Positions 669 to 14,194 of a DNA stretch of 64,000 nt are shown piece by piece (within the stretch, counting starts at the first letter, position 1; each line of letters starts with the position of its first letter). The stretch comes from Candidatus Bathyarchaeota archaeon (GTDB lineage: Archaea > Thermoproteota > Bathyarchaeia > 40CM-2-53-6), in the NCBI GenBank assembly GCA_963726255.1, contig CAVSBL010000002.1, forward strand, positions 2,299,726-2,363,725, given 5' to 3'. Under the pieces are notes generated by a model. That model worked only from the letters and a program-made list of their open reading frames with translations. It was not told the DNA's origin and did no database searches. Made by a program: the position numbers and the translations under genes.

Positions 669-1319
669 ATGGGCGACGAGAAGTTCGAAATCGACCTCGG
701 GAATCTTCTCTCAAGGCTCCTCCCCGACGAGAAAGACTCGGCTTTCAAGAAGTTGGACGCTGTCAAAGCGAAGCTTGTGGAGATGCACGACCGGAATCTA
801 GTGAAGATCAATCATTCGGCTATGGAGGTTATCTGTGCTAAGGATTTGATTTTGAGGGGCTATGAGGTCGATGTTGAGCACGGCTTAGAAGAAGCGCTTG
901 TCTGCGACCTGCTGGGAACCAAGGGCGGCGGAAGGGCCATAATTGAAATCGAGACGGGTTTCGTCCCCCCAGAGCACGCATTGGATCCCACAGCCTTTTG
1001 CTCAGCTAGAATTGCCAGCAAGATAGCTCGGTACAGTAGATTCGCGGACAAATTCAGCTTAGCTTCACCCCTCTACCAAGTCCTGCCAATTCCTTCACTC
1101 TTCCTGAAACCGCCGCGAGTGAGAGAGCAAGCGGAGCTGTTGGAAATGAAGACGCTGTGCGATCGCTACTACGATAATCCACCCATAGTCCTGAAGGCGA
1201 TAGCTACCGGTAGACTTCACTCGCTCTTCTTCATTGATGTGGACAGCGGGACACTGAGAGAGGTGGACCCTGAAACTTATTCTGAGTCACTGAGTACGTG
1301 GGATAAGTTGAGAAGGTAA
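669..1319 (+). CDS. Hypothetical protein, PD-(D/E)XK nuclease-like fold
   Basis: 216 aa; E..GY.V.VE...CDLLGTKG...IEIETG pattern resembles a restriction-endonuclease-like core. Confidence 0.65.
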   Translation: MGDEKFEIDLGNLLSRLLPDEKDSAFKKLDAVKAKLVEMHDRNLVKINHSAMEVICAKDLILRGYEVDVEHGLEEALVCDLLGTKGGGRAIIEIETGFVPPEHALDPTAFCSARIASKIARYSRFADKFSLASPLYQVLPIPSLFLKPPRVREQAELLEMKTLCDRYYDNPPIVLKAIATGRLHSLFFIDVDSGTLREVDPETYSESLSTWDKLRR

Positions 1320-1320
1320 T

Positions 1321-1549
1321 TGCTGCCCAACTTTCGAGGCAGATGTGGCTTTCCCTTCGCGAGGGACTTTCGACCTTTCCCTCATCCAACGCCTTGGTTT
1401 TCCCTCACTCGGGCATCACGGAGTTTCTGCGGTTTCCCGCTAGCGTCGTAGCGCTACGCCCGAGCGCTCATCGATCCACATAACGACCCAAGGCAAACCC
1501 TGGGACGGAAGCCGACCGACGAATCTACCCCTGTCTCGGTTGAGCAGCA
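1321..1549 (-). ncRNA. Candidate structured non-coding RNA (~230 nt), family unrecognised
   Basis: 11-bp terminal helix (1539-1549/1321-1331), nested helices (1509-1515/1370-1376; 1488-1494/1391-1397; 1456-1466/1406-1416) and a GCGG-GAAA-CCGC hairpin (1429-1440). Most mismatches are G-U on the minus strand. Confidence 0.65.
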
Positions 1550-1765
1550 GACTATGATTGTCGTTGCAGAGATATGGGGATTGTGGTTGAGCCCCAAACA
1601 TCAGGTGTGATTTCCAGTGGAATGGAACATAGCTGGGTCCACCGACTCGCTACCTTCAAAAAACCAAAGCATGACGACTCAATCAGGATGAATCAACCTA
1701 TGTCTAGTTCAAACCCTCACCATTGCACGAAAAGTTCTCTCACGATGGAATTCTCATGAGCAAGG

Positions 1766-1939
1766 TTGCAATGGCTAGGCTTCAAGAGGTCTTACCTCAT
1801 TGACGTTGGAAAAGTCTCCTGCAAGAAATGCGGACGAATATTTTCTATCGAAGAACACACTGTTCAGAAAGCCTTGGCGAAAAGAGCAGCTGAGTTCAAA
1901 GAAGACCTTCAGGAAATCGCGTTTGAGCGCAAAGGCTAG
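1766..1939 (+). CDS. Small (57 aa) CxxC protein, possibly a decayed Zn-ribbon gene
   Basis: TTG start: MQWLGFKRSYLIDVGKVSCKKCGRIFSIEEHTVQKALAKRAAEFKEDLQEIAFERKG. Below the ORF-track cutoff; an upstream in-frame ATG (1745) is separated by TGA 1757-1759. Confidence 0.4.
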   Translation: MQWLGFKRSYLIDVGKVSCKKCGRIFSIEEHTVQKALAKRAAEFKEDLQEIAFERKG

Positions 1940-1976
1940 GGTCCGACGGGTATTTGCGGGCTGGCTCTTGGACGGG

Positions 1977-2999
1977 CTAGACGGATTCCATTAGGCTCGC
2001 GACTTTTTCTTCATCAAACACTTGATCTGAAATCTTACGTAACTTCATGGCGAGAGTCGCATCTCGGCCGTTTCCCAAAGCCCATTTCATATCTGAAGCT
2101 ACAAACCCACTGTCCCTGAACATTCCTCTCGCGGCAAGTACGAATGGGCATGAGGTTAGGGGGTGGCCTTCTTCAAGGAGTAGTTTGAGGACGGGGCTGT
2201 AACGATAATTCTTGAACCGGAATCTGGCTTCTGAACGTGACAGGTCGATATTGATCTTGTCCGACAACCCTTGGTTTACATAGAATTCCGCTAGTTTGTT
2301 TAGGGATTCTTTGTGTCCTTCGGGAAGTTTCGTGTGGAATTCGTCTCGTAGAAATTCGATGATTCCGTGGCCGATGTTATCGAGGAGGAGTTGGGCTTGT
2401 GCTCCTAGGTATTCGAAGCCACACGCTAATCCATACTCAACAGTCTCGAACGCAGGTAACCCCACTTTGGTATTCGAGTAGCCTGTTGGTGGGACTGTGC
2501 TAAGGTCTGCGTGCTCCGGTGCAGTGAGAACTGAGTCGGCAGGCGGTACATTCCTGAATCTGAGGCTGTATGTTCCATCTGGGGACAATCCTTCGGACAG
2601 AACTTGTGATCCACGGTGTTCTTCTCTCTCGATTGCTCCCCGTGCGAGGCATAGGGGGCAGGTTAAAAGGAAGCAATTCTGGTTCCGGAGTTTCTTCATT
2701 AGGCCTATGAATCTCCAACCGTGCATCTTAACGAGGAAAGCCTCTCCGTCAGGTGAGAACTCGACTCCGCTCACGTAGCCAGTGTCCTTGAAGAAGCGGA
2801 TAAGTTCGGAAATGGATTGGTATGGGTCTTGTGAGAGCTGTAGGTAATTCAGTTTCACTCCGTAGTCAATGATTCCAGTCCCGATTCTGTCGAGCATCTC
2901 TTGGCCGCGTTCGTGCCCAAGATAGTCGAAGGCTCTTGCTGCTCCGTAAATAACAGAATCCAACACGGCGAGCTGAATTGATTCCGTTTTTTCCGCCAT
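1977..2999 (-). CDS. Protein with two tandem V4R/H-NOX-like ligand-binding domains
   Basis: Internal duplication: YGAARAFDYLG..LDRIGTGIIDY...TCPLCLA versus YGLACGFEYLG..LDNIGHGIIEF...SCPFVLA. Confidence 0.55.
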   Translation of the reverse strand: MAEKTESIQLAVLDSVIYGAARAFDYLGHERGQEMLDRIGTGIIDYGVKLNYLQLSQDPYQSISELIRFFKDTGYVSGVEFSPDGEAFLVKMHGWRFIGLMKKLRNQNCFLLTCPLCLARGAIEREEHRGSQVLSEGLSPDGTYSLRFRNVPPADSVLTAPEHADLSTVPPTGYSNTKVGLPAFETVEYGLACGFEYLGAQAQLLLDNIGHGIIEFLRDEFHTKLPEGHKESLNKLAEFYVNQGLSDKINIDLSRSEARFRFKNYRYSPVLKLLLEEGHPLTSCPFVLAARGMFRDSGFVASDMKWALGNGRDATLAMKLRKISDQVFDEEKVASLMESV

Positions 3000-3565
3000 T
3001 ATATTTTCACAACTTTGTCGCAGAAGGGTGCGAGTTGTGATACTACGTCCCGTTCCGCATTCATCTCAACGGTGAGAAGTGAGCCTGAAGTGTTCCACCT
3101 GCGCATCTTCTCCGTCAATAGGTGAGCAAATTTGGCGACGGATTTTGGGTCATTGTATATGAGAAGGGTTGAGAGGCTGTCCAAGACTAGGAACTTCTCT
3201 CCAGTAATCCCGTTAATGGCCTTGGAGATGCCAATGCAGAGGTTACTTAGGTCTACACCCGACCCCAAACAAGCGTGATCGTTCTCTTCCTGAATTGATG
3301 GGACGTTCGTAATCCCGTCTACAAAGAATAATGAGCTGGATGGGATTCCAGCCTTCTCGAACGACTTGGTCAGAACGGCGAACGGTTTGTTTAGGCTGAC
3401 GTAGACCCCCCGGGAAACCTTAGCTGTGAAGTAGCGTAGGAGCTGAAGAACCGCGTCCTGATACTTGATTGGGTCGATTAGCGCGAGTATTACCGGTCGC
3501 TCTAACCCGTCCAAGCTCTCGCCAATACTGACCGAAAGATCAACGGTCAACGGGAAATCTGACAA
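2999..3565 (-). CDS. Inactive KaiC/RecA-like ATPase domain protein (DUF835-like)
   Basis: GVYVSLNKP, FFVDGI, LVLDSLSTLLIYN and FCDKVVKI motifs; no Walker A; stop overlaps the start of the next gene. Confidence 0.7.
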   Translation of the reverse strand: MSDFPLTVDLSVSIGESLDGLERPVILALIDPIKYQDAVLQLLRYFTAKVSRGVYVSLNKPFAVLTKSFEKAGIPSSSLFFVDGITNVPSIQEENDHACLGSGVDLSNLCIGISKAINGITGEKFLVLDSLSTLLIYNDPKSVAKFAHLLTEKMRRWNTSGSLLTVEMNAERDVVSQLAPFCDKVVKI

Positions 3566-3679
3566 TCATGATTTGCACGGACATAAAACCTTTCGATAAC
3601 TAGCTAGAGCAGCTGTCGTGTGAATCTTAATAGTTGACCTTGCAGTTAGCGGATTGAGTATTCTGTGGATTGACGATCA

Positions 3680-4150
3680 ATGGCTGAAGATAAGATTGGC
3701 CAGGTAATGAGTAAACCCGTCCGAACAGTCAAGCCCGACGAAAAGCTCAGTGCCGCGATGGTAATCATGGAGAAGAACAACGTCGGCAGCGTCGTTGTCG
3801 TTGAAGGCGAGAACCCTATTGGAATCATAACCGAACGCGACGTTATTCGGCAAATCCTGAAAGGAACTCAAATGATTCAGGGAGCAGTAACACAAGTGAT
3901 GTCAAAGCCTTTGATCACAGGGGGACCTGATATGCTTGTTCAGGACGCCGTGGACCTGATGCTTGAGAACAAGATTCGTCAACTTCCCGTGGTTGAAGGA
4001 AACAAATTGGTTGGCATAGTTACGGACGGAGACTTGATGCGGTCGGTTCTCCGCGTTTCATACGAGAAGCTGAGCAAACTTAAGCTTCGGGAATTGGAAA
4101 TTGAAGCGGCAAGGATAGCAGCCCAGATAGTTACATTGCTAAATCTCTAA
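3680..4150 (+). CDS. CBS domain protein
   Basis: Two CBS repeats (GIITERD, LPVV..LVGIVTDGD). Confidence 0.9.
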   Translation: MAEDKIGQVMSKPVRTVKPDEKLSAAMVIMEKNNVGSVVVVEGENPIGIITERDVIRQILKGTQMIQGAVTQVMSKPLITGGPDMLVQDAVDLMLENKIRQLPVVEGNKLVGIVTDGDLMRSVLRVSYEKLSKLKLRELEIEAARIAAQIVTLLNL

Positions 4151-4167
4151 CACTCATATTCGGAGTG

Positions 4168-5538
4168 TTATCGCCGCCGCGACAGCACGACGGCGGATAC
4201 AACCGCAACAGCGGCCACTAATCCAGCAATTAGTATGAGCCCAACACCCGAATGAGGGCCGGGTGAGGATACAGTGTTCTCGGTCGGCTGCGTTGTCGTT
4301 ACAGTTGTAGAGGCAGCAGGGCGGATTCCCGTAATCTGAGCGTAGAGTAGCCCCGTGGAGGTGAATTGGTCGGTTAGCATGCTCTGGGACGCAACCTTAA
4401 CGAGCGATGCTTCAAGGTCTTGGTAGGATAAGGCCGCAGTGTCCGAACCGTAATCGACGTACCCAAAGAATTGCAATGTCCAGAAGGGTGAAACGTAATC
4501 GATTCCCTCAACCTTCGCAGAGTTAACAATTGCCGCTAGGAACTCCTGATCCAGAGGCGCCCAGAAGCTGAACACGTCGTTCCGGAACACGTCGATATTT
4601 GTAGCCAAGCTTTGGCTCACCAGCGTTCCAGCCTTGTACAACCAAGCCTCATCCATGATGACCCGCTTCCCATGTTGCTTCGCGATGTCGGAGAATGCGA
4701 GGATACGTTGTAGGGTCGGGCCAACGACTGGATAGACGTGTAAGGCTATGAAGTCTAGGCTGGTATTGGCCGCAAGGCTCTGCACATACCCATCGTTAAC
4801 CCATGTTCCACTTCCCGCCCCCACTTTCGTGCTCCCCCTGTTCAGGCCATTGAGAATGTAGTTCACGTACGCCGTGTACGAGTCGGGAGAGTTGAATTCG
4901 GTGAAACCCGTCAGCCTGTATTGCGTGTCCGGCTCGGCGCCCAAATCCAAGTAGTCAGGTTGCAGGTCCTGAATGAGTGCCACAATCATCTGCTTCCTCT
5001 GCAACTCGAAATCCTGGAACGTTAGCTTCGAGTAATCGAACGCTATCGGAGAGAAGGGGGTATTTGCGAATAGCACGGACGACTCAATCTCAACCACCAT
5101 ACCCCTTTTCCTAACTTCCTGCACGACTTGTTTGTAGAATTGCACGTAAGCTTGGTAGTTCGGAAAGTTGGGTGTGTATAGTGGTTAGCCTACTGGGAAG
5201 GTGACGCCGCCAACGCTCAACTCCTTCAACCGATCCAGATACAGGGTTACAGCCTGCATCGTGTTCGGCGAAAGCAACGCGTCTCCCCGATTCGCGTTTG
5301 CGGGTAGCAACTCTGCACCGAAAATCGGCGAACCCGTCCCAGGCCCCATTGCGGCTAAGGTGGTGTTGAAACTGTCCAAACTCGATTTGAGGGTAGAATA
5401 GAGTTCCTGGTATTCGGGCGGAACCTGAGCCTGACCTACCCCCGAGAACGCAGAGGCACTTGGAATTAGTAGGAGGCTGAACAGAAAGAGGCTGCTGGCC
5501 AGATAGGTTTTCGCGGAAACTCGACCCCGGCCCATCAA
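4168..5538 (-). pseudogene. Secreted, C-terminally anchored glycoside-hydrolase-like protein interrupted by an in-frame TAA
   Basis: ORFs 5185-5538 and 4168-5145 are in the same frame (FPVG*PLYTPNFPNYQAYVQFY). Signal peptide, AEPD, DFIALHVYP and VIMDEAW motifs, Thr-rich linker, TM helix followed by RRR. Confidence 0.7.
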
Positions 5539-5582
5539 CCGGCCAGTTTCAATATTAGGGGGTTGTGAACGAATCGTTCAAG

Positions 5583-5948
5583 TTACGCAAGTTCGATTGC
5601 TATGAGCTTGGATAGGGAGAACCAGTCTTCGATAACCTCCTTCGCAGCCTTTCCATAGTACTTCTCGTAGAGCGCAACCTTGCACCGCCAAGCCTCGTCC
5701 GTGGCTTCCTCAATGTAGTAGGCTTTTCCCGTGAAGTTCTTTCCACCTATTTCGAATGAGACTGCGCTGTTCTGCTTGAGGTTCTTCATCCAGTCCGTCT
5801 CGCTCCCCTCGTGGCTAAGGTACACCTTACCCTCCCCAAGCGCAAACCACAACTCTACCGTGTGCGGCCGCCCCGTCTTCCGCCCCTTCGTCGTAAGATG
5901 AATGAACTTCTGGGACCTAACCTTCGCCAAATCGTCCTTGCTGGCCAT
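5583..5948 (-). CDS. Deazaflavin (F420)-dependent nitroreductase / split-barrel oxidoreductase
   Basis: LTTKGRKTGRPHTVELWF and DWMKNL motifs. Confidence 0.8.
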   Translation of the reverse strand: MASKDDLAKVRSQKFIHLTTKGRKTGRPHTVELWFALGEGKVYLSHEGSETDWMKNLKQNSAVSFEIGGKNFTGKAYYIEEATDEAWRCKVALYEKYYGKAAKEVIEDWFSLSKLIAIELA

Positions 5949-6044
5949 GAGGTCTCATCTGGGGGCGTCTCTATGGCGGATCGTACTAATTATGATTGGA
6001 AACCGACGGTATGAGGAGGGTTGCGTCAGCTAAGGCTGAGGGCG

Positions 6045-6572
6045 TTAGTCGGTTTGTGGGAAGTCGCCTTGAAAGATTTCCTCTAGTGCCCTTCTAGGTG
6101 AAGGTTCAGGTTGCTCGGCCGCATAGCCTAACGAGAACATTGCCACGGGACGAACAGACTTGACGCCTAGAACCTGCTGCACTTTCCCTTCGTCAAAGTC
6201 TCCGACCCAGACGGTTGCCAAGCCAACGTCGACCGCCGCAAGCACAGCGAAGGCTCCAGCGATCGTCGCATCCTGAATGCTGTAGAGCTCCTTACCCCTC
6301 TTCCCGTATTTCGCAGCCGAACGTTCGGGGTCAGCGCAGAAGACCAAGCAGACGGGAGCCTGCGCGATGAACCCTTGATCATGCGCCGCCTTCGCAAGAG
6401 CATCCCTCTTAGCCTGATCACGAACCACAAAGACTTTGTACGCTTGCAGGTTCCCGGCTGAAGGCGCCATGTTGACGACTTGGAAGATGTGCTGCAGTTT
6501 GCTTTCCTCAACGGGTTGAGGCTTGTAGGTGCGCACTGAACGCCTCTGGGTTAGAACTTCAACGAACTCCAT
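6045..6572 (-). CDS. Nitroreductase family protein
   Basis: RRSVRTY, APSAGNLQ and GLATVWVG motifs. Confidence 0.9.
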   Translation of the reverse strand: MEFVEVLTQRRSVRTYKPQPVEESKLQHIFQVVNMAPSAGNLQAYKVFVVRDQAKRDALAKAAHDQGFIAQAPVCLVFCADPERSAAKYGKRGKELYSIQDATIAGAFAVLAAVDVGLATVWVGDFDEGKVQQVLGVKSVRPVAMFSLGYAAEQPEPSPRRALEEIFQGDFPQTD

Positions 6573-6688
6573 TAGGAATCATTCTGAGGTTGAAGACGGG
6601 CCGATTAAAGGGGAATTCTTGGCACCCAGAATTGCAATCCAGCGAGCCCAGAATTTACCACCAAACCCGTAACCCCACACGATTTCCC

Positions 6689-7735
6689 ATGCCGATTCAT
6701 TTCGAGTCGGTTAGCAGAGAAGCACAACTTCTCAGCCCCCTCCAGAACTTTGAACGGGTCAGCCAAACCATCGAGCACAGGGGGGACCCGCTTACCGGCC
6801 GACGCGTGATTGTGCTCCGAGGACGGTTGGACTATGTTAAGCGGTTCATAGAGTCGGATGAGAGCGCCATTGACGGCTTGGCGGATTCAACGCAACAGGA
6901 CTGCCCCTTCTGCCCCGCATCTGTGGAACAGAAGGCGCCAAAATTCATTCCTGAAATCTCACCCGAAGGCCGGATACGGGTGGGTGATGCGATCTGCTTC
7001 CCAAGCCTCTTCGCCCACGAGGACTTCAACGCGGTCGTCGTCCCAACACGTTCACACCGTGTCCCGTTAAATCAAATGCAGCCCTCCATGTTCGTTGATG
7101 CATTCAAGGCGTGCATTGAGTATTTTCGCCGACTGTACGCCTATCAGCCCGCGGTGAAGTACAATGCGATTGCTGTGAACTTCTACCCACCTGCTGGCTC
7201 AACTGTCGCCCATCCACATGTGCAGGCTCTCGCGAGCGACCTGCCCCTTCCCGGGACCGAGCAGCTTCTGGACGCGAGTCTAGAATACTTCCTGAAACAT
7301 GGTTCCTCGTATTGGGCCGAGCTGGTTGAGGAGGAAAGGCGCCTCCGGGAAAGGTACCTTGGGACGATGGGTGGGGTGTGTTGGTTGACGCCGTTTGCGC
7401 CTTTCGGTTTGAATGAGGCCCAGGCCATCGTGCCCCGCGTTCCAAACTTAAGCTCGATTTCCGACGAAGACCTTCAAGGCCTCGCCGAGGGCCTCGCTAA
7501 AGTTCTGAGGTACTACCACGACACCGGCGTGAGAAGCTTCAACATGGCGCTGTATTCGGGGCCGTTTGGTGAAGCCCTCGATTACTTCGACGTTGGGCTT
7601 CGAGTTGTCTCCCGCTATGGGTACAAGCCTAAGTTTGTGAGCGACGTTTGGGCGCTCCAGTACCTGCTCGGTGGCCAAGAGGCCTATGAGGCGCCGGAAG
7701 AAACTTGCAGCAAGCTCAGAAAATACTTCGAATAG
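6689..7735 (+). CDS. Galactose-1-phosphate uridylyltransferase-like (GalT/HIT superfamily) protein
   Basis: DPLTG, CPFC and AGSTVAHPHVQ (HxHxQ) motifs; start placed at ATG 6689. Confidence 0.75.
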   Translation: MPIHFESVSREAQLLSPLQNFERVSQTIEHRGDPLTGRRVIVLRGRLDYVKRFIESDESAIDGLADSTQQDCPFCPASVEQKAPKFIPEISPEGRIRVGDAICFPSLFAHEDFNAVVVPTRSHRVPLNQMQPSMFVDAFKACIEYFRRLYAYQPAVKYNAIAVNFYPPAGSTVAHPHVQALASDLPLPGTEQLLDASLEYFLKHGSSYWAELVEEERRLRERYLGTMGGVCWLTPFAPFGLNEAQAIVPRVPNLSSISDEDLQGLAEGLAKVLRYYHDTGVRSFNMALYSGPFGEALDYFDVGLRVVSRYGYKPKFVSDVWALQYLLGGQEAYEAPEETCSKLRKYFE

Positions 7736-7751
7736 CTGAGGTTGGCTAGGC

Positions 7752-9056
7752 GTGAAGCTCATTTCCGCTGAAGAAGCGGCTAGGGTGGTCAAGTCTGGCG
7801 ATAGGGTTGTTCTGAGCAACCTTTGCTCTGAACCGAGGCTTCTGCCCAGCCTTATCTTGGAACGGGCTCGGGAGCTGCGTGCGGTTAGGTTCTTTCATTG
7901 CAGGCCGATGGGCCGGTTTGTTGAACGTTACTTGGAGCCTGGGATGGAGGAGCATGTGAGGTGTGCGACCGCGTTTGCTGGCGGTGTACGCGCCATTATC
8001 GAGCTGATGAAGGAGGGGAGGGCGGATTTCTACCCGATTCCGCTGAGCAGGCTGCCCTGGCTCTTCAGGTCGGGCCTTTACAAGCCTGACGTATTCATCG
8101 CGACAGTGTCTCGACCCGACGAGCGCGGTTACTGCAGCCTGGGAATTTCGGTGGATTATGGGCGTGCGGCGTTGGAGACCGCTGGGGTTATGATTGCTGA
8201 GGTGAACGAGAATATGCCGCGAACCTGCGGGGACTCAGAGGTGCACGTTTCCAAGATAGATTACATGGTGGAAGCCTCGGCTCCGATCTACGAGCTGCCC
8301 TCAGCAAATGTTTCCGAGGTGGGGCGCCGTATCGGGGAGAATGTTGCTGAGCTGGTTGAGGACGGTTCGACGATTCAAATAGGGTTCGGGGCGACGGCGG
8401 AATCGATTCCTCCCTTCCTGAAAGAGAAGAAGGACCTGGGGATGCATAGCGAGATGTTGCCTGAGAGTGCGATGAAGCTGGTTGAAGAAGGCGCCTTGAA
8501 TGGGAAGGAGAAGAGCGTTGACAGGGGGAAGGTTGTGTGCGCGTTCAGCGCGGGAACACGGAAACTCTACGAGTGGTTGGACAACAATCCCAGAATCGAG
8601 ATGCGGCCTTTCGATTACACGAACGACAGCAGAATCATTGCCCAGAGTCATAAGATGACGGCGATAAACACGGCGTTGCAGGTCGACTTGTACGGCAACG
8701 TCTACTCGGATATGCTAGGGTTTGATGAATACTCAGGCGCGGGAGGCCAACCGGACTTCATCCTAGGCGCGATGTTGAATCCTGAGGGAAAATCCATCAT
8801 AGCCCTACCATCCACAACCTCCAACAACAAAACCTCTAGGATAGTTTCCTTCCCAAACCTAGCGCGCAACCCCAGATCCCCTGCGATGCCGACTGTCTCA
8901 AGGTTCTACGCGGATTACGTGGCCACCGAGTGGGGAATTGCCTCGCTCAGAGGCAAGACAAGAGGGGGAAGGGCGAAAGCTCTAATCGATGTAGCCCACC
9001 CGAACTTCAAGGACGAACTTTGGAAAGAAGCACGAGAAATGAAGTTCACAACGTAA
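7752..9056 (+). CDS. Acetyl-CoA hydrolase / 4-hydroxybutyrate CoA-transferase family
   Basis: AEVNENMPRT, DLGMHSEM, SGAGGQPDF and YVATEWGIA motifs. Confidence 0.9.
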   Translation: MKLISAEEAARVVKSGDRVVLSNLCSEPRLLPSLILERARELRAVRFFHCRPMGRFVERYLEPGMEEHVRCATAFAGGVRAIIELMKEGRADFYPIPLSRLPWLFRSGLYKPDVFIATVSRPDERGYCSLGISVDYGRAALETAGVMIAEVNENMPRTCGDSEVHVSKIDYMVEASAPIYELPSANVSEVGRRIGENVAELVEDGSTIQIGFGATAESIPPFLKEKKDLGMHSEMLPESAMKLVEEGALNGKEKSVDRGKVVCAFSAGTRKLYEWLDNNPRIEMRPFDYTNDSRIIAQSHKMTAINTALQVDLYGNVYSDMLGFDEYSGAGGQPDFILGAMLNPEGKSIIALPSTTSNNKTSRIVSFPNLARNPRSPAMPTVSRFYADYVATEWGIASLRGKTRGGRAKALIDVAHPNFKDELWKEAREMKFTT

Positions 9057-9165
9057 GAGCGATTCTAATCTAGGAGAGAGACTGAGGAGTCTCCGTCGGT
9101 ACTAGCAGGGTGGGGAATGTAAAATAGTCATTAATCTTTAGTCGAAAGTGGAAGAGTGTTCGCTC

Positions 9166-10116
9166 ATGAATTTGGTGATTGGTTCGACGGGTTCGATTGG
9201 AAGCGCAGTAGTCGATCAGTTGTCATCCCAAGGGCGGCCGGTCAGAGCGCTTGTTAGGGATCCTGGTAAAGCTAAGAGAATTTTCACACATCCAGAGAAA
9301 GTTGAGTTAGTCGAAGGGTCGGCGGAGAACCCTGAGGCCTTGAAAAAGGCGTTTGATGGCGCGAAGCTTGTGTTCAATTGCCTGAACCTTCCCTACCCAG
9401 AATGGAGTAAGCTCCCAGAAATACACAAGCGGATCGTTGAGGCTGCAAAGCAGGCGTCGGCGAAAATGGTCTTCCCAGGAAATGTGTACATCTATGGCCA
9501 CGCCCAATCGGACCGCGTGAACGAAGCCCATCCGAGAAATCCCTGTTCGAGGAAGGGTGTACTCCGCGTTCAGTTGGAGGATATGTTCATGGAATCGTCG
9601 CGAAGGAACGAAGTTCCCACAGCCATTGTACGTTTTCCCGATTTCTATGGACCGAACGCAAGTGGGGCAAGCTCCCTAACAGGGAACATCTTCAAAGCAG
9701 CGCTTGACGGTGGAACCGCACAATGGTACGGCGACTTAGACGTCTTGCATGAGTTCATCTTCATTGAGGATGCGGGGAAGGCGATGGTTATGGCTTCGGA
9801 ACGGGCGGATGCCTACGGACAAGATTTCAACGTTCCCGGCCCCGAACCCATCTTGGCCAAGGATTGGATAAGCTTGGTTTTCAAAGAAGCGGGTACAGCG
9901 CCAAAGATGAAGGGAACCAGTAGGGTGAGCATGCGATTCTATGGAATGTTCAACAAAATGGCGAAGGAATTCGCTGAGATGCAATACCTGACCCAAGAAC
10001 CATTGATCCTGGATGGAACGAAATTCATGAAATTCTTCGGCACAAAATGCCCAACACGAAACTATTCTGAGGCGATACGTGAAACGCTCGCGTGGATGAA
10101 AACGCAACATGGCTAA
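9166..10116 (+). CDS. NAD-dependent epimerase/dehydratase (atypical SDR)
   Basis: GSTGSIG Rossmann motif; RFPDFYGP. Confidence 0.85.
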   Translation: MNLVIGSTGSIGSAVVDQLSSQGRPVRALVRDPGKAKRIFTHPEKVELVEGSAENPEALKKAFDGAKLVFNCLNLPYPEWSKLPEIHKRIVEAAKQASAKMVFPGNVYIYGHAQSDRVNEAHPRNPCSRKGVLRVQLEDMFMESSRRNEVPTAIVRFPDFYGPNASGASSLTGNIFKAALDGGTAQWYGDLDVLHEFIFIEDAGKAMVMASERADAYGQDFNVPGPEPILAKDWISLVFKEAGTAPKMKGTSRVSMRFYGMFNKMAKEFAEMQYLTQEPLILDGTKFMKFFGTKCPTRNYSEAIRETLAWMKTQHG

Positions 10117-11086
10117 CATCTTGGTTACGTTCCGGGCTGAGAACGAGCAAAGGGAAATTCTCACGAAAGCCTTGGACGCAGTTACACGCATTGCCTTCCT
10201 ATCTGACTTAACCGGCAAGGAGCGCGCAAGGGAACTTGCCAGCGCCGACATACTGATTTCATGGAGCCCCAGGCGGGAACTGCAGCCTGAGGAATTCCGG
10301 CTAATCGCTCATGCGAAGATGATGCAATTACTCTCCGCTGGCGTAGACAGCATACCCTTCTCCCAGCTCCCGCCAGGCCTTATGATCGCAAGTAATGCTG
10401 GGGCCTACGCGGAGCCTATGGCGGAACATGTACTCGCAATGATCTTGGCTGTATGGAAGAACCTTGTTGACCGGCACGTGAAACTTAGGGCCGGCAACTT
10501 TGACCAAGAGAACGAGAACCGCATGCTACGAGGTTCCACGTGTGCAATCCTGGGTTTCGGTGGGATAGGGAAAGCAACCGCACGCCTCCTGCGCTGCTTC
10601 GGAGTCAAGATAATGGCGGTGAACACGACCGGCCGAACCGATGAGCCAGTCGACTTCATCGGGACCCTGAAGGATCTAGAGCATGTACTACGCCAAGCCG
10701 ATATCATCATAATCACGCTTCCGCTAACCAATTCGACTCGAAAGCTAATCGGAAGAGAACAGTTGGGATGGTTGAAGAATGATTCGATGCTTGTCAACGT
10801 GGCCCGCGCGGACATTATCGACGAGGGTGCACTATACGAGAAGCTGAAGGGGAACCCTCAGTTTTCGGCCGCGATTGATGCTTGGTGGATTGAACCTTTT
10901 CGCCACGGGAAATTCGCCACAGATTACCCCTTTCTGGAGCTTCCGAATGTTCTCGGTTCGCCGCACAATTCAGGCGTAGTTCCCGGTTCCTTCCTGCGGG
11001 GCACGAAGTACGCAGCCGAGAACGTGAAAGGGTTCCTGAACAACGAACCCGTGTTGGGCGTTGTTAAGAGAACTGACTATTCGTGA
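10109..11086 (+). CDS. D-isomer-specific 2-hydroxyacid dehydrogenase
   Basis: SAGVD, GFGGIG, VNVAR and SPHNSG motifs. Confidence 0.9.
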   Translation: MANILVTFRAENEQREILTKALDAVTRIAFLSDLTGKERARELASADILISWSPRRELQPEEFRLIAHAKMMQLLSAGVDSIPFSQLPPGLMIASNAGAYAEPMAEHVLAMILAVWKNLVDRHVKLRAGNFDQENENRMLRGSTCAILGFGGIGKATARLLRCFGVKIMAVNTTGRTDEPVDFIGTLKDLEHVLRQADIIIITLPLTNSTRKLIGREQLGWLKNDSMLVNVARADIIDEGALYEKLKGNPQFSAAIDAWWIEPFRHGKFATDYPFLELPNVLGSPHNSGVVPGSFLRGTKYAAENVKGFLNNEPVLGVVKRTDYS

Positions 11087-11099
11087 GAGCGGCTAACCT

Positions 11100-11552
11100 T
11101 CAAGTTGATGTGCTGTTGGACCATGATTGAATCCGTAGGGTGGATGGGGTCCAGAGCATTTGGGCCGTGGCGTGAAGTTCGACGAGGACGGGCCCGCTAT
11201 AGTAATTCTTGGCCTCCGTGCTTGTGGCGTTGAAGATTGTGAATTGGAAGGTGTGTGTTTGGAGGGGGAGTAGGGCTAGGCTTTGTGCTGGTGATTCTGA
11301 CGTGTCCCAATACATGTAGATTCCCTGGTTCGTGACCAACCATACTGCCCGGTTGAGCGCCATTGGCCATGGGGTTGGGTTAGTTAGGCTAACTTCGTAT
11401 GTGGGCACTTTGCTGGGCAAGAGTTGCACGGTAAGCGTTGGATTGCGGCTAGTGCTCGGCACAACCCATGGTGCAACCGCATACGCGAGAAATATGAAGA
11501 GCAAGACGTACCCGATTGCCCTCTTACTGTTCATTTTCGTTCTCTTGCTCAT
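11100..11552 (-). CDS. Hypothetical membrane-anchored protein with beta-rich ectodomain
   Basis: N-terminal TM helix followed by beta-strand-like sequence. Confidence 0.55.
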   Translation of the reverse strand: MSKRTKMNSKRAIGYVLLFIFLAYAVAPWVVPSTSRNPTLTVQLLPSKVPTYEVSLTNPTPWPMALNRAVWLVTNQGIYMYWDTSESPAQSLALLPLQTHTFQFTIFNATSTEAKNYYSGPVLVELHATAQMLWTPSTLRIQSWSNSTST

Positions 11553-11809
11553 GAACTATCGGTGTGCGTGACTTCCACCCTCTGCTATCAACCTTAGGGC
11601 GAGAGCTGAAACGTTGAGGGTCAACTATCGGAGAGGCGCGTCGTAGAGACTGGGCTTGGAAGCGTTAGAGAACTGGAGCAACGGTGGTTCGTATACCAGC
11701 GTATGCGTTCACATACGACTAAACGGTATACTTGCTTTCCCTCCATCCTTCAAATATAATGACCGACATAATGCTGGAGTTATCTAGTTTCAGGGAGGTG
11801 TGTGATCAA

Positions 11810-12187
11810 ATGGATAGGACGATTGTGCACTTCGAGATTCCCGCGAACGACCCAGCTAAGCTTTCGCAGTTCTATTCGAAGCTGTTCGGGTGGAGCTTCG
11901 AGAAATGGGAAGGCGCAGGCGCCGGGGCGGAATATTGGATGATCAAGACTAGGGCTAAGGACGATGCGATGGGGGTTAATGGTGGAATGATGAAGAGGAT
12001 GGACCCGAACCAGACCCCGCTCAACTATATCATGGTTGAATCGGTTGACGACTTCAGCAAGAAACTAGTCCAACTAGGCGGGAAAATCATAATGCCAAAA
12101 ACGGAGATACCGAACATGGGCCACTTCGCCGTGGCGCTGGATCCGGAAGGCAACGGCTTCGGCATCTTCGAAACAAAGGAAGAGTAG
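11810..12187 (+). CDS. VOC/glyoxalase family protein
   Basis: IVHFEIPA...FYSKLFGW...DPEGNGFG; GGAGGTG ribosome-binding site upstream of ATG 11810. Confidence 0.9.
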   Translation: MDRTIVHFEIPANDPAKLSQFYSKLFGWSFEKWEGAGAGAEYWMIKTRAKDDAMGVNGGMMKRMDPNQTPLNYIMVESVDDFSKKLVQLGGKIIMPKTEIPNMGHFAVALDPEGNGFGIFETKEE

Positions 12188-12395
12188 AACGAACTATGGA
12201 GATGGGACGAGCCCAACTCCACCCAACTTATTTTCGTAACTGAGCACACACATGAAAATACGTGGTAATTCCATCGTTGAATATCTAATTCTGGACCTCA
12301 ATGCCAGACAAACCAAGCCTCTCGGGTTTCTATGCGGTAGACCAATCCGTCAAAGTAAAATTCCACAGTCCTGTATGCCGACAGCGAGTTGATAG

Positions 12396-13580
12396 TTGTC
12401 GCACCCAATCCGCATTTTGCCCTTTCGGCGTTTGCTTGGAGTCCTGGCGATGCTGGTTTTGGCGTTTGCAGTAATCTTTCCTCCGTTTGTAGGACCGAAT
12501 TCATTGCTCAACGCTTTTCTTCAAGCATTGACGCTCGCCACGCAATTGAACGGGCAATATCGGATCACTGGCATTCTTTTGATTCTAGGCGTCTTGGGTT
12601 GTTTGGTGATCTTTGTCGGATTGATCTTGGCTCTAGCTCTCTTCTCATATGGAAAGAGGGCGACCTGGGTCAGAGCGGTAGTGCTCCTCTCAGTTGTCGG
12701 CATGCTTGTGGCAACTGTATCCTTGTTTGATTATAGCGGAGATTTCATCAGCGAGATTGTGACCGTCACGAAGGTCGGGTTCTGGCCGAGCCTCAAGTTC
12801 TTCGGAATCGGATACTTCATCTCTTGGATTATGATCGCGCTAGCATTGTATTCTTCGCGAAAGGTGCCTGTGTCTGCGGTTCAGGAATTCAAACTACCAG
12901 TCGCCCCGAGCCCTACGGAATTGATACCGATGGGGTACTCTGCTTTGGATAATTTGCTGATCGGGGGCCTCCCAGTTGGTGCCGCTGTGGTCTTGACTGG
13001 TCCACCGTGCGATGAGAAAAAACTGATTGTCAGACGGTTCCTGGAAACTAATCTTAGGAATGGCCGCCCTTGCATACTCCTCTCCAGCAGCCTCGACGCT
13101 GTAACAGACTTGATTCCTATATACCGTAAGGAGCTTCAGGTCATAATCTGCCACCCCCAGGCTGAAACAGTTGCTTCCAACTTTGACAGCATTGTCAAAC
13201 TGAATTCGGTTGATAGCCTGACCGAAATCAACCTTGAAATCAGTAAAGCTCTCGCAAGATTGCCCTCCGGCAAACCGTCTGTCCTTTGCTTGGACATTCT
13301 TGATGACGTTCTGCTCGAACATCATGAACGGGCAAGAAGATGGCTCATGGACATCCTAGGGAGAGGAAAATCAACCCGTGTCACCTATCTCGCGACACTG
13401 AATCCGGCAATGCACTCTGACCAGGAATCCCAAGCGGTTCTAGAGACCTTTGACGGACACATCGAACTGTTCGAAGGAGAAATCCAAGTGAGGCCCAAGC
13501 TCATCAGAATCAAGAAACTGGCTGGGCGCAAGTTCCTAGATGAAGAACTACTCGTTCGAAGAGAAAGAATTCAGGAATGA
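12396..13580 (+). CDS. Membrane protein (about 4 TM) fused to a KaiC/RAD55-like domain with degenerate Walker A
   Basis: Hydrophobic N-terminus; GYSALDNLLIGGLP, GPPCDEKK and FDGHIEL motifs. Confidence 0.8.
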   Translation: MSHPIRILPFRRLLGVLAMLVLAFAVIFPPFVGPNSLLNAFLQALTLATQLNGQYRITGILLILGVLGCLVIFVGLILALALFSYGKRATWVRAVVLLSVVGMLVATVSLFDYSGDFISEIVTVTKVGFWPSLKFFGIGYFISWIMIALALYSSRKVPVSAVQEFKLPVAPSPTELIPMGYSALDNLLIGGLPVGAAVVLTGPPCDEKKLIVRRFLETNLRNGRPCILLSSSLDAVTDLIPIYRKELQVIICHPQAETVASNFDSIVKLNSVDSLTEINLEISKALARLPSGKPSVLCLDILDDVLLEHHERARRWLMDILGRGKSTRVTYLATLNPAMHSDQESQAVLETFDGHIELFEGEIQVRPKLIRIKKLAGRKFLDEELLVRRERIQE

Positions 13581-13735
13581 ATTGGACTTGATCGACGGAA
13601 GTTTCATCGGCGACTACACGGAAATTTCAGTCGGTTCTGACAACGCTTTTCACGCTCTCTGGACGGACATGAACAAACAGTAGCTTGGTCGTACGGGTTC
13701 CAGTTAGTTCCAATTAGTATCCACCAACAGGACAT

Positions 13736-13990
13736 CTACCGGTCTTCACTGAGTATTTCGGGAGGGGTGGTTGAAAAATTCCTTGTAGCGTTATCGTATT
13801 CATGATTCTTGAATGCGGCTACAGATTCTCGCCTGCATCGGGGACAGATCCTAAGCTGATATCGATTGCTTGGCAGCGGGCGCTTACACCATTCGCAACA
13901 CCTAACAACGAGTGGTTTCTCAGCCTGTTGTTCGGAGTCAAGTAGTAGCTCCTCAAGATCCTCAGCCAAATCCATCATCCACAACCTCAA
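13736..13990 (-). CDS. Small Zn-finger protein
   Basis: CEWC...CPRC pairs. Confidence 0.45.
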   Translation of the reverse strand: MRLWMMDLAEDLEELLLDSEQQAEKPLVVRCCEWCKRPLPSNRYQLRICPRCRRESVAAFKNHEYDNATRNFSTTPPEILSEDR

Positions 13991-14032
13991 GTCGAAGTCA
14001 GCGGTTGCTCGGGAGAAACGAGCTATGAGACA

Positions 14033-14194
14033 CTACCGCGAGCGAGAGGATTGTGTTGCGTGGGGCTGCGTGATAATGGGCTTGTGTAAGAGGAAAGTGT
14101 CGTAGGCAGTATCCAAATCTTTGAGATGCCTTATCCAACCAGCATATTCCGCGTCAGTTTGAGCGAACCGTTTTGCAGCCGCCTCAATTTGCAT
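14033..14194 (-). CDS. Small hypothetical protein (53 aa)
   Basis: Manual translation MQIEAAAKRFAQTDAEYAGWIRHLKDLDTAYDTFLLHKPIITQPHATQSSRSR; amphipathic helix; below the ORF-track cutoff. Confidence 0.35.
   Translation of the reverse strand: MQIEAAAKRFAQTDAEYAGWIRHLKDLDTAYDTFLLHKPIITQPHATQSSRSR

Follow-up and report, generated by a model that had tools for sequence, protein, structure and literature searches.

We report that the minus strand at positions 1321-1551 of a 64,000-nucleotide stretch of a Candidatus Bathyarchaeota archaeon genome (contig CAVSBL010000002.1 of assembly GCA_963726255.1; the whole stretch is hereafter called the window) is very probably a gene dedicated to a circular non-coding RNA, processed at a motif of the bulge-helix-bulge (BHB) kind to a ring of 200 nucleotides (nt). 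The reading draws on covariation throughout a branched fold, on a BHB motif that recurs in all 23 homologs aligned, and on metatranscriptome contigs that join the two ends of the predicted ring. A first-pass annotation of the window had noticed the structured RNA and the open reading frame (ORF) beside it, at 669-1319, and had overlooked circularity through the BHB motif. That ORF encodes a protein of 216 residues, here called c0. The route to such a ring (BHB cleavage, ligation, circle) is already known; what is new is a purpose-built circular non-coding RNA family with a candidate protein partner.

The RNA gene and its conserved fold

The first-pass annotation had described a strongly folding element next to the stop codon of ORF 669-1319, transcribed from the minus strand, and both observations hold. 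The minus strand of 1320-1551 folds at -106.6 kcal/mol (z -4.6), a stability equalled by 0 of 200 shuffles, versus -84 kcal/mol (z -2.46) for the plus strand. Under the consensus fold the window contains 10 G-U pairs and no A-C pairs on the minus strand, indicating that this is the RNA strand. The element occurs once in the source genome. It is convergent with ORF 669-1319, and 2 nt separate the stop codon of that ORF from the 3' arm of the RNA gene. TATA-like boxes stand about 25-30 nt upstream of the closing helix P1 in every lineage, for example AAAAGTTTATATC and TCTTAAATG; the box of the window, CCCATATCT, is weaker than these. T-rich sequence lies downstream of the gene. The flanks beyond P1 are not conserved, which argues that the exons span just ~15-20 nt and that the ring is the sole conserved product.

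Scanning the window against Rfam at gathering scores returned no family at all, tRNA included, and Rfam 15 on positions 1100-1900 gave chance-level rows only at E<=10. Likewise, 13 homologous loci, searched in genomic order, gave nothing at E<=1. Elsewhere the genome encodes a canonical full-length RNase P RNA (173.6 bits) and a canonical full-length signal recognition particle (SRP) RNA (163.6 bits). These results, together with the strong covariation described below, uphold the earlier proposal of a new archaeal class of non-coding RNA. The family is undescribed in the full-text literature searched, that is, outside subscription journals and supplements.

BLAST against 41 relatives recovered full-length homologs of 78-100% identity in six other genomes. 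A covariance model built from six sequences (R1) gave eight strong and two weak matches among 105 genomes of the order. Searches anchored on the c0 gene found the RNA at 19 of the 80 loci fetched, labelled Bathyarchaeia, Ca. Nitrosocaldus, Nitrososphaerales and Nitrososphaera; a scan with a regular expression for the motif added no loci beyond nhmmer. Within a sample of Nitrososphaeraceae the RNA was present in 19 of 41 genomes (18 of 40 without the unpublished genome G296), at 1-7 copies each. Copies within one genome are 68-97% identical. Every copy carries its promoter-like box, and most of the differences between them are compensatory changes in stems, notably inside the P4 arm. We rejected the idea that the paralogs present a variable, guide-like single strand: their loops are constant and the differences in their stems are compensatory. 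R1 returned nothing in Nitrosopumilus, Nitrosarchaeum, Hecatella and Bathyarchaeota BA2, one of five genomes matching, a result that does not establish absence. A phylum-wide search with a sequence-only model (R2) matched 2 of 151 genomes and says little, since just 14 candidates per genome were scored.

A weak relative of 187 nt (23 bits) was found at L020:1501-1687 (minus strand; G010:C93) and L021:1501-1687 (minus strand; G006:C11), the two being 98% identical. It keeps P1 and several conserved stretches, and a 2-nt deletion turns its BHB into a symmetric internal loop; it could be a relic in the course of decay, or else a variant that is linear. One RNA copy of a Nitrososphaeraceae genome (L132, G260:C19:655386-658617) sits within more than 2.3 kb that hold no ORF of at least 100 residues. 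The coding density there is unusually low, and the region may contain more non-coding genes.

With 21 sequences, RNAalifold predicted 61 pairs, 52 of which show compensatory changes. An alignment of 23 sequences has 91.7% of cells paired, versus 66.2% in shuffles, with compensatory changes in 62 of 70 pairs; slid controls on the same alignment pair at just 34-39%. Judged from this covariation, the fold is a branched one, in which P2, P3, P4 and P5 stand around two conserved joiners, GGGNNAAC and AAAGCCRCAU. The elements of the gene, apart from those specific to the BHB motif, are as follows.

1321..1551, minus strand: stand-alone RNA gene with a precursor of ~230 nt (covariance model match 1318-1551, 267.6 bits; transcript ends predicted)
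1570..1575, minus strand: putative TATA-like box (AUAUCU) of a presumed promoter, 22-27 nt upstream of P1, as read from the letters
1539..1548, minus strand: P1 5' arm GCUGCUCAAC, helix h on the exon side of the BHB and no part of the mature circle (covariation; no contig cover)
1322..1331, minus strand: P1 3' arm GUUGGGCAGC, pairing with 1539-1548
1523..1531, minus strand: P2 5' strand GGGGUAGAU, pairing with 1336-1344 AUCUGCCUC (compensatory changes in 7 of 9 pairs)
1468..1522, minus strand: P3 arm, with outer helix 1514-1522/1468-1476 and apical hairpin 1498-1507/1484-1493 (covariation)
1406..1466, minus strand: P4 arm, with helix 1458-1466/1406-1414, inner helices and a GAAA-capped hairpin at 1427-1443 (90-95% paired)
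1398..1405, minus strand: joiner J4/5 AGGGAAAA, following the first family pattern above, its letters near-invariant
1359..1392, minus strand: P5 arm, helix 1384-1392/1359-1367 (88.3% paired, compensatory changes in 8 of 8 pairs)
1345..1353, minus strand: joiner J5/2 GAAAGCCAC, following the second family pattern above, the most conserved stretch of the family

P1, the closing helix of the first-pass annotation, comprises 10 pairs (1548-1539/1331-1322), with compensatory changes in all 10 and 96.5% of cells paired over 23 homologs. P2 is paired in 96.9% of cells in the 23 sequences, including three pairs that compete with the central helix H of the BHB. The two helices of P3 are 91.5% and 98.3% paired, with compensatory changes in 9 of 9 and 7 of 8 pairs respectively, and the loop of its apical hairpin bears conserved G..G.C letters. 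Nowhere does the family vary more than in the interior of P4, where the variation is compensated among paralogs. GG at 1403-1404 may pair with CC at 1347-1348; both are invariant, so covariation is uninformative here. Of the inner helices proposed in the first pass, the CGCUCGGGC/GCCCGAGUG helix and the hairpin with a GAAA loop are supported by the covariation alignment. The proposed 'fully nested' arrangement gave way to the branched fold with local hairpins. The CAG/CUG, UCGGCUU/AGGUCGA, GCCUUGG/CCAAGGC and UCCCU/AGGGA helices fared no better than chance, with 54.3% of cells paired versus 53.8% after shuffling; of 500 shuffles, 187 equalled them.

The bulge-helix-bulge motif and the proposed ring

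Excerpts of one source (PMC7714728) define a BHB as a 4-bp helix flanked by two 3-nt bulges and describe the (alpha-beta)2 endonucleases of TACK archaea as tolerating relaxed BHBs. At the base of the RNA, P1 adjoins a central helix H (CGAG/CUCG), which the first-pass annotation had already drawn. H is paired in 23 of 23 homologs and together with P1 reaches 97.5% paired; it shows covariation in three of its four pairs and occurs in eight versions, among them CGAA/UUCG, CGAG/CUCG, CAGG/CCUG, CAGC/GCUG, CAAA/UUUG and CGGG/CCCG. Both bulges measure 3 nt in all 23 homologs, the 5' bulge (B1) being mostly A-N-A. As H lies outside the model to which the alignment was fitted, its conservation is independent of that fitting. 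On the exon side, where helix h calls for at least two Watson-Crick pairs, P1 supplies 10 bp. On the intron side, where a strict hBHBh' motif needs at least two closing pairs, a first pair can form in 23 of 23 homologs and a second in 17 of them, while the window offers just one. Canonical BHBs are cut after the second bulge letter (NN|N), a rule that predicts both ends of the ring in the window.

1535..1538, minus strand: 5' strand (CGAG) of BHB central helix H, in the 5' exon, pairing with 1335-1338 in 23 of 23 homologs
1335..1338, minus strand: 3' strand (CUCG) of helix H, pairing with 1535-1538
1532..1534, minus strand: 5' bulge B1 (ACA), predicted cut after C1533 (NN|N rule; fits the joints within 2 nt)
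1332..1334, minus strand: 3' bulge B2 (AAA), predicted cut after A1333 (NN|N rule; contig joints)
1333..1532, minus strand: mature circular RNA of 200 nt, whose joint ...CUCGAA|AGGGG... forms a GAAA tetraloop on P2 (contigs and predicted cuts)

Applied to the 23 homologs, the same cuts predict rings of 192-218 nt. The predicted loop at the junction is GAAA in nine homologs and GAGA in 14, so that it fits GNRA in 23 of 23. The letters CUC, UUC or CCU of the 3' strand keep two pairings, one with the 5' exon in the precursor and one with the three letters that open the ring, and both are conserved. In the aligned letters this reads as a three-way covariation that records the refolding from precursor to product. 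The two pairings also explain why the helix of the first-pass annotation and that of RNAalifold compete.

We propose the following course of events. A precursor of ~230 nt would be transcribed from its own TATA-like promoter, and its ends would pair as the 10-bp P1; with the adjoining CGAG/CUCG helix and two opposite 3-nt bulges this would constitute the BHB. The tRNA-splicing endonuclease would then cut both bulges, a role suggested by the motif and by the genes present: the source genome contains two EndA-domain genes and one RtcB gene. RtcB would presumably join the ends into the 200-nt ring 1532..1333, the short exons of ~15-20 nt being discarded. Upon departure of the 5' exon, CUC (1338-1336) may re-pair with GGG at 1529-1531, lengthening P2 by 3 bp, while the ligation joint would become a GAAA (GNRA) tetraloop that caps P2, with G1335 as its first letter.

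Environmental RNA appears to contain such rings. We compared metatranscriptome contigs of four runs from four studies (X1, X2, X5 and X9) with positions 600-2000 of the window; runs X3, X4, X6, X7 and X8, whose shares were small, carry no weight here. In all four runs contig cover is confined to ~1330-1532, and there is none over ORF 669-1319, the upstream spacer or the P1 arms (including 1322-1329 and 1539-1548). The ring accumulates to very high levels: the depth of its body in X5 is 1670-14047, and contigs that span the junction are 3090 deep in X5 and 62.9 in X2. Joints running from the end of the element back to its beginning were found at 1530>1331 in X2 and X5 (with a 2-nt ambiguity), at 1526>1330 in X1 (three variant letters) and at 1532>1334 in X9 (one variant letter). 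Allowing for the 2-nt ambiguity and strain differences, these back-joints (1526-1532 > 1330-1334) fit 1532|1333. One X9 contig of 230 nt consists of a 200-nt turn plus a 30-nt overlap, as would be expected of a closed cycle in a 31-mer assembly. The joined ends have just 2-3 letters in common, too few to mislead a 31-mer assembler, which makes assembly artefacts an unlikely source of the joints. Furthermore, the gene is single and never tandem in the genomes examined, so repeats in the DNA do not explain them.

Circles made by splicing in archaea are known mainly as introns (by-products) and pre-rRNA intermediates, with one repair case, a permuted SRP RNA. The nearest precedent, as far as excerpts of Plagens et al. 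2015 (PMC4731332) describe it, comes from Thermoproteus tenax, whose circular SRP RNA is likewise the product of a stand-alone non-coding RNA gene. The SRP RNA in that circle is permuted and its protein partners are known, whereas the present ring matches no known family and its genome retains a normal SRP RNA. Circular tRNA introns and circular pre-16S/23S rRNAs of archaea resemble the ring in their BHB (4-bp helix, two 3-nt bulges), in circularisation of the excised part and in the enzymes presumed to act, and differ in being by-products or intermediates of a host RNA, whereas conservation here extends to no product of the gene but the circle; the same sources list introns, rRNA intermediates and omega-RNA isoforms as the other archaeal circles (PMC7714728, PMC12918454, PMC12558985). 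Tan1, an RNA of 229 nt from marine group II Euryarchaeota (PMC5069720, in part), offers a lead, compared by description only: it is of similar length, is very abundant in metatranscriptomes and has a complex conserved fold, in a different phylum from the carriers of the ring. If our reading is right, the environmentally important Bathyarchaeia and Nitrososphaeria would carry a circular non-coding RNA that is purpose-built, widespread and very abundant and has a conserved complex fold. The ligation joint itself would be a designed structural element, the GNRA loop. The family would explain one source of the small RNAs of ring shape that abound in metatranscriptomes of soil, peat and sediment, and it offers a new entry for RNA databases together with a concrete candidate protein partner.

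The neighbouring protein and its possible link to the RNA

669..1319, plus strand: c0, 216 residues, PD-(D/E)XK-type fold at ~46-201 and an N-terminal helical hairpin (ORF and AlphaFold2 model)

Searches with c0 against Pfam, NCBIfam, PADLOC and PDB sequences gave no match. The family comprises 2601 proteins in 249 clusters at 50% identity and is encoded by at least 582 species genomes, in single copy and ~50% identical across classes; no relatives were found in viral contigs. In 69 sequences of the family E70, D80, E93 and K118 do not vary at all, and E95 hardly does. AlphaFold2 (AF2) given 14 sequences performed poorly (pLDDT 59.1), and we replaced that model by one from the 69-sequence alignment (pLDDT 97.0). 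As modelled, c0 has a PD-(D/E)XK-type nuclease fold, so that the first-pass label 'PD-(D/E)XK-like' stands at the level of the fold, by the AF2 model and structure alignments. The best structure alignments (VIA) are to 3dnx (SPO1766, Z 9.2), XisH 2okf (Z 9.0) and AF1548 (1y88, Z 8.3), with root-mean-square deviations of 2.4-3.2 A over 97-113 residues. Lower matches include NucS, Can2, YaeQ and restriction enzymes; over superfamily members that extend to NucS 2vld and Can2 7bdv, residues 46-201 align at Z 9.2-6.7. Against this superfamily c0 stands out by its extra N-terminal helical hairpin, by an ExE motif with a displaced lysine and by belonging to no Pfam or NCBIfam family by sequence. The ExE pattern lies on one strand with the lysine further along. 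Foldseek gave weak E-values (1e-3 to 0.1), the best being 1.2e-3 for a CdiA-CT toxin domain, and in the ESM Atlas c0 falls among unnamed archaeal clusters, with PDDEXK_14 as the nearest named one at 0.86, a lead only.

At four loci of the Nitrososphaera type (L049, L053, L056 and L063) the c0-family gene lies tail to tail with a gene for an XPB/Rad25-type helicase. The helicase domains (ResIII, Helicase_C and ERCC3_RAD25_C) were checked in L056, and the other three loci were grouped with it by BLASTP clustering. Bax1 is the nuclease partner of archaeal XPB, and it is among the weak fold matches of c0 (6p4o_B, 8gy8_A). The c0-family protein may be a repair nuclease.

Other forms of the locus were examined and set aside. 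Of 1491 longer candidates for fused c0 forms one matched, with a PRTase domain, and it is probably a merged gene call. The conserved 300-nt gap after the c0 gene in family f8 genomes (L111:2160-2490, L112:1160-1484, L122:1123-1475) was read as a small protein-coding gene and not as an RNA: the gap holds a small conserved ORF that starts MCLAIPAK, which we take, unconfirmed, to be HypC-like.

Several observations speak for a link between the RNA and the protein. All eight strong loci of the order have the c0 gene next to the RNA, amid other flanking genes that vary. The 19 protein-anchored loci fall into three arrangements: convergent and abutting in four (Bathyarchaeia), tandem with the RNA 45-95 nt downstream in 11 (Nitrosocaldales, Nitrososphaerales), and 1.3 kb apart in four, with a gene for a 3-hydroxyacyl-CoA dehydrogenase between. 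Among 105 genomes of the order, the eight with the RNA all fall within the 25 that have the protein (one-sided Fisher 3.9e-6); likewise, among 41 Nitrososphaeraceae genomes, the 19 with the RNA all fall within the 29 with the protein (one-sided Fisher 8.2e-5). Both values are uncorrected for kinship. No genome found to carry the full, BHB-bearing RNA lacks the protein (0 of 8 genomes of the order, 0 of the 19 among the Nitrososphaeraceae sampled). Genomes G138, G258, G259, G260 and G107 have one protein gene each, and of these G138 alone was not selected through the protein. The full RNA was thus found only where the protein is, and not the reverse, a pattern that hints at a ring dependent on the protein or acting upon it.

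Alternative explanations and neighbouring genes

Some features of the data weigh against a dedicated gene for a ring. The 23-sequence alignment was fitted to a model that already holds P1-P5 (helix H excepted), and just one intron-side pair closes the 5' bulge in the window, which makes the motif a relaxed one and not a strict hBHBh'. Circularity was read from assembled contigs of relatives and mixed communities, in which strand and the ratio of linear to circular molecules are not readable, and the position of the joint is ambiguous by 2 nt. An ordinary linear structured RNA, with back-joints that are assembly artefacts or minor by-products, would agree with the great stability of the P1-closed precursor and with contigs that cannot give linear and circular proportions. 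We consider it improbable: although depths run into the thousands, no contig of the four runs extends into the P1 arms or past them, the junction contigs are themselves deep while their ends share so few letters, and the BHB geometry and the GNRA loop at the joint are kept in all 23 homologs. Still less probable is a known RNA, SRP-like or RNase P-like, in circularly permuted form and hidden from linear covariance models. Such a permuted SRP RNA exists in Thermoproteus (PMC4731332, as excerpted), and Rfam models are blind to permuted order; however, both housekeeping RNAs are present elsewhere in the genome in canonical form, none of the 13 diverse homologs gave even a partial Rfam match at E<=1, and a patchy distribution (8 of 105 genomes, 19 of 41) ill suits an essential housekeeping RNA. 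There remains a BHB intron whose product is the ligated exons, or a dispersed repeat or DNA palindrome without RNA function, to which we give hardly any credence. Ligated exons would indeed give a 10-bp hairpin, and Nitrososphaeraceae genomes contain up to seven copies, several of them at contig ends. The first-pass annotation had named dispersed copies as grounds for giving up a functional RNA, and multiple copies do exist in that family; yet they bear promoter-like boxes and drift by compensatory changes in their stems, and the element is single in the present genome, and for these reasons we rejected a miniature inverted-repeat transposable element. Conservation and covariation are concentrated in the ring, the exons keeping only their pairing, and G-U pairs are confined to one strand (10 versus 0). 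The dedicated gene for a circular RNA is the reading that we retain.

Whether c0 is the partner of this ring is a separate matter, on which the first-pass annotation had allowed for mere proximity. The proposed partnership has moderate support, from adjacency in three arrangements and one-sided co-occurrence; what speaks against it is the number of genomes with the protein and without the RNA. Near the protein gene the RNA is missing in 17 of 25 such genomes of the order, and a genome-wide search with R1 in five of these found it in none; 10 of 29 protein-bearing Nitrososphaeraceae genomes lack it as well. In Nitrososphaeraceae most RNA copies are not linked to the one protein gene, and at Nitrososphaera loci the protein adjoins the XPB-type helicase. 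Kinship and the incompleteness of metagenome-assembled genomes (MAGs) inflate both Fisher values, and the BHB-less 187-nt relative occurs in two genomes of the same genus that lack the protein (89% and 83% complete). These points suit a circular RNA that is real and independent of c0, adjacency being inherited synteny and co-occurrence a matter of shared lineage and MAG completeness, with the helicase neighbour hinting at a DNA-repair role of the protein's own. We regard such independence as a serious possibility, somewhat short of even. Against it, adjacency persists in three orientations across Bathyarchaeia, Nitrosocaldales and Nitrososphaerales as neighbours change, and the full RNA is always accompanied by the protein (8 of 8, 19 of 19, and G138 besides). 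A mobile or defence module of two parts, for example a type III-like toxin-antitoxin system in which the ring restrains the nuclease, is unlikely. The pair is patchy within the genus (the protein is in 5 of 22 other genomes of the genus, and the RNA in four of these five) and is found in differing genomic contexts, the nuclease fold keeps its invariant acidic and lysine residues, and the best, if weak, Foldseek match is a toxin domain (CdiA-CT, E 1.2e-3). However, neither PADLOC nor viral contigs gave a match, many carriers of the protein lack the RNA, and a single-copy protein ~50% identical across classes in at least 582 species genomes looks vertically inherited. Our tentative preference is for a ring that is a stable protein-binding RNA working with or regulating the PD-(D/E)XK-fold protein, a guess that follows from never finding a full RNA copy in a genome without the protein. 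That the ring is an obligate RNA subunit or regulator of this protein is a stronger and more doubtful claim. If it were true, the two would form an archaeal ribonucleoprotein of a new kind, with a purpose-made circular RNA at its base, and in some genomes one protein would be supplied with several ring paralogs that have diverged.

Beyond the RNA gene, the window contains at 1766-1939 (plus strand) a putative ORF of 57 residues with a CxxC zinc-ribbon-like motif (weak Pfam match to Zn_ribbon_4, E 0.038), which is kept beside the RNA gene in the two nearest relatives at 96% and 81% identity. Further on, at 1977-3565 (minus strand), lie two genes that appear to form an operon, the stop codon of one overlapping the start codon of the next. 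The second of its proteins, of 340 residues, has no match in Pfam or PADLOC; the first, of 188 residues, is KaiC-like (DUF7504, E 1.9e-11).

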